Shown here piece by piece: positions 50,823 to 52,500 of a stretch of 64,000 nt of DNA. Numbering within the stretch: the first letter of the stretch is position 1; each line of letters opens with the position of its first letter. Source of the DNA: Escherichia phage VEc25; the sequence record MW175414.1. One strand, 5' to 3'. The translations under genes were made by a program, and so were the position numbers. The notes beneath the pieces are model-generated. The model had not been told where the DNA came from. It was given only the letters and a program-made list of their open reading frames with translations, and ran no database searches.

Positions 50823-51326
50823 CTATTCAAACAGTTTACGGTCAGAACGAATCTGGTTCCCCAGTTCAATCAGTTGGTTATCACGGAGTCTAACAGTTGC
50901 CCTGAGTTCTTCAACCAAACGTCTGCCTTCTTCAAGACTTGAGTCGAGTCTGGCTGCATGGCTTGCAAGATTGAGGCATTGAGTGGTTCCGGTTGAGGCT
51001 TGACGTTTATAACTCTCGGCTCGTTTTTCTGACTGGAGCAACCGACTATTGTACTGGTTAGTAATAGAATCAATAACGACTTCATAAGACTCTTTGGCTT
51101 TATCAAGTCGAAGGGTAAGTTGCCCGACTTCATAACTGTGTTCCCGATTCTTTTGGTCATAAGCCAGTTTTACTCTATCAAGTTCTTTTGAGTACTCCTT
51201 CTTATCTTCATCCCATAGTGCTTGAACTTTCTTTTCACCATGTTGTGAACCAAGAAGAAAAAGGGTAGCTCCCAGAGCTACCCCTCCCAAAAGACATACA
51301 GTTAACTTAATTAACGATGTCTTCAT
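50823..51326 (-). CDS. Rz-like inner-membrane spanin (i-spanin)
   Basis: Track start 51365 is TTG; ATG 51326 with GGAGAGG SD; N-terminal TM ([21 protein letters not shown]) then coiled-coil; follows endolysin. Confidence 0.55.
50870..51085 (-). CDS. Rz1-like outer-membrane lipoprotein spanin (o-spanin), embedded out of frame in the Rz gene
   Basis: [18 protein letters not shown] signal with lipobox IVGC; Pro-rich mature part (KPQPEP); lies wholly inside the Rz ORF in another frame; start could instead be 51133. Confidence 0.5.
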   Translation of the reverse strand: MKSLLILLLTSTIVGCSSQKNEPRVINVKPQPEPLNASILQAMQPDSTQVLKKADVWLKNSGQLLDSVITN

Positions 51327-51933
51327 TACACCTCTCCAGAGGGACATTACCAATACGATTAGCAATCCATCCTGTAGTGTACTCAGGCATATTAAGAGAT
51401 AAATAGTAGTTTAACTGTTTACCATCTAGAGACTTCAAAATGAGCTTACAGGCTTCTACTTTGCCTCGTTTATTCTGAAGGCTTTTATATGCACTTAGAG
51501 TTCCAGAACCGACTTTACCATCAACTTGTATTTTAGGGTAGTCTTTGCCATTTCTGGAGAAAGCATTAAGAGATTCTTGTAACCAACGAGATGGTCTTGC
51601 AGGTCCAGTATTAACACCAGCATCTACTAGTTTTTCTGTTACCGCTGGTGATACATCTGCAAACTTAACAAAGCCAGGCTTCAAGATGTAATCGTTGTAA
51701 TAAATACTTGATGCCATTTCCTGAGTTAAGTTCTTCATTGAACCATCCCAGTTATACATCGACTCTAGTTCTTGCTTATGCTTTTGAGCAACCTGAATAG
51801 TTACACCATGATTAGTTTCACCTCCTGGGTCTTTGGGGTCATTAACGTATCCACCCTCAACAGCAAATACAGCAGCAATGATTGCTGCAATAACCCCTCC
51901 AACACCGCCAACCTTCTTCTTACTTATTGCCAC
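51307..51933 (-). CDS. SAR-type endolysin, GH108 N-acetylmuramidase with C-terminal peptidoglycan-binding domain
   Basis: GTG start with AGGAGG SD 6 nt upstream; N-terminal Gly/Ala-rich weakly hydrophobic segment (VGGVGGVIAAIIAAVFA); GH108 signature EGGYVNDPKDPGGETNHGVT. Confidence 0.65.
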   Translation of the reverse strand: MAISKKKVGGVGGVIAAIIAAVFAVEGGYVNDPKDPGGETNHGVTIQVAQKHKQELESMYNWDGSMKNLTQEMASSIYYNDYILKPGFVKFADVSPAVTEKLVDAGVNTGPARPSRWLQESLNAFSRNGKDYPKIQVDGKVGSGTLSAYKSLQNKRGKVEACKLILKSLDGKQLNYYLSLNMPEYTTGWIANRIGNVPLERCNEDIVN

Positions 51934-52183
51934 ACCAATCCTCCTTTGGTTTCAAACGAACCAGTCGGCAAATAATATTCAGCACAAAGAGTGCTATAGC
52001 AATGTTATTGCCATGTGGAATATCTTTGAGGATATGTTGGGGTAATGCAGAGAAAGAACTGGATAAGACATCCACACAAGAGAAGAACAATATTGCTAAT
52101 GTGCTAATCTGAATAGATGCCCATTTCCAACAACGTTTCCAATTAGGAACCATTTCCACATGTTTGGTTAACTTGCGAACCAT
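51920..52183 (-). CDS. Candidate class II (two-TM) holin/pinholin
   Basis: ATG 52183 with GGGAGA SD; 87 aa; two hydrophobic helices (ISTLAILFFSCVDVL, IAIALFVLNIICRLV) and charged C-terminus; overlaps endolysin start by 14 nt. Confidence 0.35.
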   Translation of the reverse strand: MVRKLTKHVEMVPNWKRCWKWASIQISTLAILFFSCVDVLSSSFSALPQHILKDIPHGNNIAIALFVLNIICRLVRLKPKEDWCGNK

Positions 52184-52500
52184 GCAAAAATCTCCCGTCT
52201 GGCAGCAGCCAGTATACCAATAATGATACCTGCTCCAGCCCATACCCATTTACCAAACAATCCAGCACCAACAACTTTGTGTTTGATGGTAATGAACTCT
52301 TCAATAGTAGGGGCAGACTCAGCCAGAGACTTTTCTACATTCTCCAGTCGAGTGTCCATCTTATTAATAGACAGTTGAAGGTTACGTACAGCATCATCTA
52401 AATCTTGCCGAGATTTAGCATCACGGGCATTATTTTCGAAGAGTGTCTTCATACGTTCCTCCATTCGAGCTAGGAGCACCTCTACGGATTCATGACTCAT
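52168..52500 (-). CDS. Lysis-associated membrane protein (110 aa; single C-terminal TM; holin or antiholin candidate)
   Basis: ATG with AAGGA SD; N-terminal helical domain then GKWVWAGAGIIIGILAAA hydrophobic helix. Confidence 0.35.
   Translation of the reverse strand: MSHESVEVLLARMEERMKTLFENNARDAKSRQDLDDAVRNLQLSINKMDTRLENVEKSLAESAPTIEEFITIKHKVVGAGLFGKWVWAGAGIIIGILAAARREIFAWFAS

Follow-up and report, generated by a model that had tools for sequence, protein, structure and literature searches.

The lysis gene cassette of coliphage N4 in Escherichia phage VEc25: sequence anatomy, conservation and two putative terminator-like hairpins

The stretch of DNA analyzed here, called the window throughout, comprises 64,000 nucleotides (nt) of Escherichia phage VEc25 (sequence record MW175414.1), and between positions 50,823 and 52,500 it carries a compact group of lysis genes that are all on the minus strand. 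In order of transcription, these are gp63 (52168..52500), encoding a pinholin of 110 amino acids (aa) with one C-terminal transmembrane domain (TMD); gp62 (51920..52183), encoding a lysis regulator of holin-like character with 87 aa and two TMDs; gp61 (51307..51933), encoding from a GTG start codon a signal-anchor-release (SAR) endolysin of 208 aa that is a GH108 N-acetylmuramidase; gp60 (50823..51326), encoding the inner-membrane spanin (i-spanin), a protein of 167 aa with one TMD at its N-terminus; and gp60a (50870..51085), which encodes the outer-membrane spanin (o-spanin) in the +1 frame and lies wholly inside gp60. An earlier note on this DNA, made from the letters alone, had proposed that four to five genes form a lysis module here. 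The module stands on the N4 annotation and on published experiments, and the number of genes is five. The features that it named were all found at its coordinates by open reading frame (ORF) reading, hydropathy and Pfam, each of them on the minus strand, and the transmembrane segments and lipoprotein signal that it expected were all present in a simple hydropathy scan and on reading of the sequence.

With high confidence, we identify this locus as coliphage N4's multi-gene lysis cassette, carried by a strain of Enquatrovirus N4. Window positions 50400-52900 showed 99.2% nucleotide identity to coliphage N4 (NC_008720, EF056009); for the 12 further records of Enquatrovirus spanning the full region, the identity was 99.3-99.6%. 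Twenty nucleotide differences from the N4 reference were counted over 2.5 kb, and none of those inside the five lysis genes alters an amino acid, with gp60, gp60a, gp61, gp62 and gp63 each having 0 differences from the N4 proteins of NC_008720 (100% identity in all five). Given the 99.2% identity to N4 and the five identical proteins, the features of the lysis genes are not a product of chance. The positions implicated in rapid lysis, gp61 G12 and gp63 T65 and T71, are wild type in the window. Neighboring reading frames share 16, 14 and 20 nt, with the same order and overlaps as in N4, and these overlaps suggest translational coupling. The neighbors are also those of N4, with the portal gene (gp59, 50814..48523) 8 nt downstream of the cassette and a 417-aa tail gene (gp64), ending at 52604, upstream. 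Membership in the N4 cassette is thereby indicated by near-identical DNA, identical proteins, gene order and the portal and tail neighbors alike.

The cassette is already known, since the lysis genes of coliphage N4 have been described and tested by experiment, and nothing new about lysis itself is reported here. The functional assignments of all cassette genes come from Awuah et al. (bioRxiv 10.1101/2025.11.12.688109) and were made on proteins of identical sequence; in that work, the plasmid-expressed gp60-gp63 cassette alone lysed E. coli at ~25 min. The annotations of RefSeq N4 and of phage AlfredRasser include a holin, an endolysin and an i-spanin, with an o-spanin in AlfredRasser, and database labels name gp60 as Rz-like spanin or i-spanin, gp61 as N-acetylmuramidase or endolysin, and gp62 as holin. 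What the present analysis, as a reading of sequence, supports is the anatomy of the genes, the N4 identity and the conservation only.

The hydropathy scan of gp63 revealed one hydrophobic segment, Gly/Ala-rich and C-terminal (residues ~76-100), which follows a helical N-terminal part, predicted to be cytoplasmic, and a conserved juxtamembrane 'Receiver' segment, APTIEEFITIKHK. The protein matched phrog_5211 at 3e-50, a PHROG without an assigned function, and no Pfam family up to E = 10 and no NCBIfam family was detected for it. A tblastn search with gp63 recovered 147 phage records, nearly all of them N4-like phages of Proteobacteria. For comparison, we used eight loci from other Schitoviridae genera, the hosts being Escherichia (phage G7C), Klebsiella, Achromobacter, Pseudomonas, Erwinia, Stenotrophomonas, Delftia and Burkholderia, with N4 as the ninth locus. 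The order gp63, gp62, endolysin, spanin, portal is kept in the eight, with Delftia phage RG-2014 excepted for gp62. In the alignment of the nine gp63 homologues the N-terminal part is variable, while APTIEEFITIKHKVVGAG…W is strongly conserved and leads into the TMD, a pattern that agrees with the description given by Awuah et al. (bioRxiv 10.1101/2025.11.12.688109). These authors found that gp63 complements the phage 21 pinholin S21 and not lambda S105, and that it kills irreversibly after addition of carbonyl cyanide m-chlorophenyl hydrazone (CCCP), and on these two grounds gp63 is taken as the pinholin. By hydropathy, gp63 has the small size and the single TMD expected for that role, but not the two-TMD topology of the S21 type, in which TMD1 is a SAR domain. 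A relationship of gp63 to XhlA-like 'hemolysin' proteins was considered and rejected, as the match to phrog_1193 reached 8.6e-4, three of the nine homologues matched weakly (best 4.8e-4) and the search to E = 10 returned no Pfam family; the similarity is at most one of topology.

The adjacent gp62 has two hydrophobic segments by hydropathy, whether read as a protein of 87 or of 109 aa, and it fits the holin-like class with Pfam DUF7940 at 49.5 bits (cut-off 27) and phrog_1356, 'holin', at 6.9e-29. Candidate starts for this gene fall within 52153-52249 on the minus strand and comprise ATG 52183 (87 aa), ATG 52249 (109 aa) and the codon for Met11 of the 87-aa form. GGGAG lies upstream of ATG 52183, and 87 aa is the annotated length of gp62 homologues; ATG 52249 is without a clear Shine-Dalgarno sequence and overlaps the region coding for the gp63 TMD. 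In the 87-aa form, R3, K4 and K7 stand ahead of Met11, an arrangement that recalls the dual start of the lambda S107/S105 type. In the account of Awuah et al. (bioRxiv 10.1101/2025.11.12.688109), gp62 is a 'lysis regulator' that is dispensable and acts slowly in a holin-like manner.

The earlier note had listed an 87-aa protein with two transmembrane segments and a 110-aa protein with one upstream of the endolysin, and the hydropathy scan bears out both. Its remark that either could be the holin or pinholin was an apt hedge, and the experiments of Awuah et al. (bioRxiv 10.1101/2025.11.12.688109) place the pinholin function with the 110-aa gp63 and leave the 87-aa gp62 as a non-essential regulator. 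The opposite allocation, with gp62 as the real holin or pinholin and the single-TMD gp63 as an antiholin or accessory factor, would agree with the phrog_1356 match of gp62 and the holin label that it bears in N4 and many relatives, with its two-TMD layout, which is like that of the phage 21 pinholin, and with the published observation that gp62 kills after CCCP and in time frees both the lambda and the phage 21 endolysins. This allocation is nevertheless very unlikely. Removal of gp62 from the plasmid-borne cassette left lysis the same, and 0 of >60 rapid lysers were gp62 mutants, whereas gp63 alone complemented the S21 defect and halted growth within 30 min, and phage lacking gp63 was obtained only with compensating mutations in the SAR domain of gp61 (bioRxiv 10.1101/2025.11.12.688109). 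Additionally, Delftia phage RG-2014 (L010 2465-3404) has a gp63 homologue followed directly, after an 8-nt gap, by the endolysin; no gp62-like gene is annotated in between, which fits the dispensability of gp62.

The reading of gp63 as pinholin and gp62 as regulator needs to be taken together with several limiting points. The orientation of gp63 is a predicted one, the TMD being flanked by basic residues at either end (KHK ahead of it and RR behind it), and according to Awuah et al. the prediction tools disagree on gp63 topology (bioRxiv 10.1101/2025.11.12.688109). The gp62 product may have 87 or 109 aa, depending on the start used, and its role rests mostly on negative results. Public annotation and PHROG give the holin label to gp62 and not to gp63, and the source of the gene functions is a preprint (bioRxiv 10.1101/2025.11.12.688109). 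Nothing that we found contradicts the overall picture.

The endolysin gene gp61 had been predicted to begin at GTG, and this start was confirmed, with the Shine-Dalgarno sequence AGGAGG (51945..51940, minus strand) read directly from the sequence 6 nt 5' of the GTG across the spacer ATTGGT and with no in-frame start upstream; within the protein, Met does not recur before residue 59. Amongst the nine loci, a GTG start for the endolysin occurs in N4 only. The N-terminus of the protein reads MAISKKK-VGGVGGVIAAIIAAVFAV-EGGYVNDPKDPGG, so that three Lys precede an 18-residue segment, VGGVGGVIAAIIAAVFAV (residues 8-25, coded by 51859..51912 on the minus strand), which consists to 50% of Gly and Ala and reaches a Kyte-Doolittle peak of 2.17 in a 19-residue window. 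Directly after this segment, at residues 26-38, comes the GH108 motif EGGYVNDPKDPGG, which begins with EGGY. The Pfam families Glyco_hydro_108 (PF05838; 81.2 bits, cut-off 21.2) and PG_binding_3 (PF09374; 36.7 bits, cut-off 24.6) were both matched above their curated cut-offs, which together with the N-terminal EGGY places gp61 in the GH108 class by profile; a partial NCBIfam match to 'holin-associated N-acetylmuramidase' and a match to a PHROG endolysin family were also obtained. Basic residues, a weakly hydrophobic Gly/Ala-rich TMD and a catalytic domain attached directly to it correspond to the layout of SAR endolysins, and in all eight of the endolysin homologues a Lys-flanked Gly/Ala-rich N-terminus likewise adjoins an E-G/Q-G-Y/W motif.

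The combination of a SAR-like N-terminus with a GH108 domain, as first read from the letters, is thus matched by the sequence and by Pfam, and the SAR endolysin function by published complementation. In the work of Awuah et al. (bioRxiv 10.1101/2025.11.12.688109), who class the protein as a SAR endolysin, gp61 complemented endolysin defects whether paired with the lambda holin or with the phage 21 pinholin, and in the absence of a holin, with the spanins alone, it produced a slow, leaky lysis like that of the phage 21 SAR endolysin. For the membrane-associated N-acetylmuramidase activity of gp61, these authors cite Stojkovic and Rothman-Denes 2007, where hydrolysis of the MurNAc-GlcNAc bond is reported for the identical protein. 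Charge mutations in the SAR segment (e.g., G12E) caused early lysis, and spontaneous rapid-lysis mutants mapped to the juxtamembrane 'Receiver' of gp63 and to the SAR domain of gp61 (bioRxiv 10.1101/2025.11.12.688109).

That the N-terminus of gp61 is instead an ordinary cleavable Sec signal peptide, with the enzyme secreted and neither tethered nor released, appears extremely unlikely. The end of the segment, V-F-A|V-E, does obey the small-residue rule of signal peptidase I at -3/-1, as read from the sequence, but cleavage there would make the motif Glu residue 2 of the mature enzyme, and the 50% Gly+Ala content is typical of SAR domains. A secreted enzyme would also sit poorly with its reported membrane association, with the slow and leaky lysis by gp61 alone that the pinholin speeds up and synchronizes, and with single charge insertions in the segment, such as G12E, bringing lysis forward (bioRxiv 10.1101/2025.11.12.688109).

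Downstream of the endolysin, gp60 most likely starts at ATG 51326, which gives the 167 aa of the N4 annotation, rather than at TTG 51365, which opens the ORF. It has the layout of an i-spanin, with one N-terminal TMD (~residues 5-27) and a periplasmic part of ~140 aa, and it matched phrog_6197, 'Rz-like spanin', at 6.6e-68. The embedded gp60a has the characters of a spanin lipoprotein, as 50870-51085 lies inside 50823-51326 in the +1 frame, its signal ends in the lipobox IVG|C (codons 51049..51038), and the mature protein of 56 aa has Ser, and not Asp, at +2. The mature length reproduces the 56 residues given by Awuah et al. (bioRxiv 10.1101/2025.11.12.688109). The annotation of AlfredRasser starts the o-spanin earlier, at ATG 51133. 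Neither gp60 nor gp60a matched a Pfam or NCBIfam family, and the spanins were recognized only by PHROGs. The only Cys of mature gp60a is the lipidated one, and gp60 has a single periplasmic Cys, C117; the set of Cys residues available in lambda for intermolecular disulfides is therefore not present, which is a difference from lambda and not a requirement of the class. The prediction of an Rz-like i-spanin with an out-of-frame lipoprotein and the lipobox IVGC was borne out by sequence, by annotation and by the published experiments, in which gp60 and gp60a fully complement the lambda Rz/Rz1 defect (bioRxiv 10.1101/2025.11.12.688109). The 'Pro-rich body' ascribed to the lipoprotein was partly right, as prolines are present, but at a modest 5 of 56 residues (9%). 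In the main text of a survey of spanins (PMC6139136), N4 is not named.

An embedded frame could in principle be open by chance, with gp60 acting alone, and in line with this gp60a has no Pfam or NCBIfam match, its PHROG matches are weak (~1e-3), and it is not annotated in the RefSeq or GenBank records of N4. The probability of such a coincidence is negligible in light of the comparative data. The +1 frame is open, with signal peptide, lipobox and Cys, in all nine loci, which belong to different subfamilies, and the mature o-spanin, with the pattern …NVKPKxEPL…LQAMQPxST…LLKKA…W…NS…LLDSV…, has a mean pairwise identity of 64% across the nine, equal to the 64% of the overlapping i-spanin frame. 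With both frames open and equally conserved, the dual coding of the spanin pair is genuine. Additionally, the o-spanin is annotated in AlfredRasser, G7C and Pokken, and it was together with gp60 that gp60a complemented lambda spanin amber mutants (bioRxiv 10.1101/2025.11.12.688109).

Two hairpins resembling intrinsic terminators were identified on the minus strand around the first three genes of the cassette. The first, T1 (52516..52536), lies in the gp64-gp63 intergenic region and consists of GCCGGG-GATA-CCCGGC followed by TTTTT, with the T-run stopping ~15 nt 5' of the gp63 ATG; its folding energy was -16.7 kcal/mol (z = -3.8). In each of the nine Schitoviridae loci a hairpin with a T-run precedes the gp63 homologue, and the Pokken record labels it a terminator. 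The second, T2 (51258..51283), has a perfect 9-bp stem, GGGTAGCTC-TGG-GAGCTACCC, followed by TTTTTCTT, and is located ~23 nt past the gp61 stop codon, within the region coding for the gp60 TMD; it folded at -19.7 kcal/mol (z = -2.5). Counterparts of T2 with a T-rich tail at the same place were seen in G7C (L004 3722-3746) and Klebsiella phage PW7 (L005 2061-2076), so that hairpins of this type occur in three Enquatrovirinae genera although the encoded TMD residues differ. The T-richness of TMD-coding sequence after Gly/Ala codons may partly explain T2. When all 64 kb of the window were scanned under strict conditions for a perfect GC-rich stem of at least 6 bp followed by a T-run, T1 and T2 were the only late-strand sites in the ~35-kb late-gene region, the other two minus-strand matches being outside it. 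A general terminator scan had missed T1, probably as extension of the stem consumes the T-run, and it was recovered by the strict scan and folding.

From these observations, we tentatively consider that the gp63-gp62-gp61 block may be transcriptionally insulated by two putative intrinsic-terminator-like hairpins, an idea that we hold to be possible but on balance doubtful. With T1 placed just before gp63, the lysis genes would be expressed through read-through or from another promoter. A sigma-70 scan of positions 50700-52800 found no promoter-like site on the minus strand and fewer sites in total than in shuffled sequence; this result says little, because N4 late promoters are reported to be only remotely sigma-70-like. 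For the related phage LUZ7, 33 late transcription start sites have been described, and nearby promoters may therefore exist. If both hairpins act as terminators, the dosage of the lysis genes would be governed by read-through at T1 and the endolysin-to-spanin ratio by T2, and the two could, if so, contribute to the slow lysis clock of N4. The word 'terminator' is absent from the N4 lysis paper (bioRxiv 10.1101/2025.11.12.688109). Hairpins that bracket the lysis genes represent a cheap and testable lead on lysis-gene dosage in N4-like phages.

Within the identification of the locus as the N4 cassette, a course of lysis can be proposed. Following late transcription of the minus strand, which would deliver the products of the cassette, gp61 would be exported by Sec and tethered to the inner membrane through its weakly hydrophobic, Gly/Ala-rich SAR domain. 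The tether presumably keeps the enzyme inactive, with the SAR domain abutting the EGGY motif, whose Glu is the presumed catalytic residue of the GH108 family. Meanwhile gp63, anchored by its single C-terminal TMD, would build up in the membrane until triggering leads to small depolarizing pinholes. Depolarization would free the SAR domain, and the activated gp61 would then cut the peptidoglycan as an N-acetylmuramidase. Loss of the wall would in turn free the complex of gp60 in the inner membrane and the outer-membrane lipoprotein gp60a, with disruption of the outer membrane as the likely result. The dispensable gp62, with its slow and triggerable holin-like activity, may aid the exit from the lysis-inhibited state of N4. 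For the pinhole, gp61-release, spanin and gp62 steps, the gene functions have been shown by experiment on identical proteins (bioRxiv 10.1101/2025.11.12.688109).

Public labels for these genes are in conflict with the experiments, as gp62 is called 'holin' and the pinholin gp63 is labelled a hypothetical or, very often, a tape-measure protein, and the o-spanin gp60a is missing from the N4 reference records in both RefSeq and GenBank. Homologues of gp63 are often labelled 'tail length tape-measure protein' or hypothetical (L005 834-1166, L008 2486-2833, L011 2486-2830). The i-spanin is unannotated in Achromobacter phage Axy12 and Burkholderia phage HN03, in each of which both spanin frames are open.

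Away from the cassette, the window and N4 positions 7430-70153 are collinear, with ~98% identity, save for two homing-endonuclease insertions. One, of ~700 bp (17221-17922), carries an ORF on the plus strand (17259-17873) for an HNH_3 + NUMOD4 homing endonuclease and divides gp39, the gene of a family-A DNA polymerase, so that it is read as the two ORFs 15305-17356 and 17836-18666. It is shared by SPSP, AlfredRasser, AL25, Jura, PMBT57, the BEU phages and Pollock and is absent from N4, OLB145 and 3HA13. The other, of ~590 bp (40310-40899), separates the gp52 stop from the gp51 start and carries a minus-strand ORF of 187 aa (40311-40874) that matched HNH-endonuclease PHROGs at 1.2e-38 and no Pfam family. 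This insertion was found in no other Enquatrovirus record of the phage collection; its only match, at 87.7% nucleotide identity, came from PGN829.1, an N4-like coliphage that is more distant, and this suggests a recent transfer of the homing endonuclease gene.

Amongst known systems, the closest is N4 itself, whose cassette is the same as that of the window, the isolate differing by the two extra homing-endonuclease insertions elsewhere. For gp61, relatives with solved structures are Salmonella Sen1395 (6v3z), a second GH108 protein (6v40) and Neisseria NMB1012 (2ikb). By phmmer, gp61 matched 6v3z and 6v40 at 1.9e-26 and 1e-22 with the EGGYVN motif aligned, and this motif and the GH108 + PG_binding_3 architecture are common to gp61 and the GH108 structures. 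The alignments to 6v3z and 6v40 start at about gp61 residue 16-21, and the SAR segment is therefore without a counterpart in these chains. Unlike gp61, the bacterial GH108 proteins with structures are outside any phage lysis cassette.

The lysis inhibition of T4, which involves the holin T and the antiholins RI and RIII, resembles that of N4 in that lysis is delayed, the yield is higher and the effect is ascribed to inhibition of the holin in both; Awuah et al. state that the proteins serving lysis and its inhibition in T4 are not conserved in N4 (bioRxiv 10.1101/2025.11.12.688109). The spanin pair is like lambda Rz/Rz1 in that the gene of an i-spanin with one TMD at its N-terminus contains, in the +1 frame, the whole coding sequence of a small outer-membrane lipoprotein. 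It differs in having no detectable sequence-family match and a gp60a that is far less Pro-rich (9%). In lambda, Rz1 is a disulfide-linked o-spanin dimer, a form that gp60a cannot take, since its mature part has only the lipidated Cys.

By function, the cassette can be likened to that of phage 21. Its pinholin S21 has two TMDs, one of which is itself a SAR domain, and its endolysin R21 is an enzyme of the T4-lysozyme type, while gp63 has one TMD, at the C-terminus, behind a long N-terminal part predicted to be cytoplasmic, and gp61 is a GH108 muramidase with PG_binding_3. Nothing indicates homology between the lysis proteins of N4 and those of phage 21, the likeness being one of function and the sequences not having been compared. 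The parts nonetheless work across the two phages, as gp63 complements S21 and gp61 functions with S21 (bioRxiv 10.1101/2025.11.12.688109), and the course of events is alike in both, with a pinholin that depolarizes the membrane, a SAR endolysin that is thereby released, and a two-part spanin that finishes lysis.

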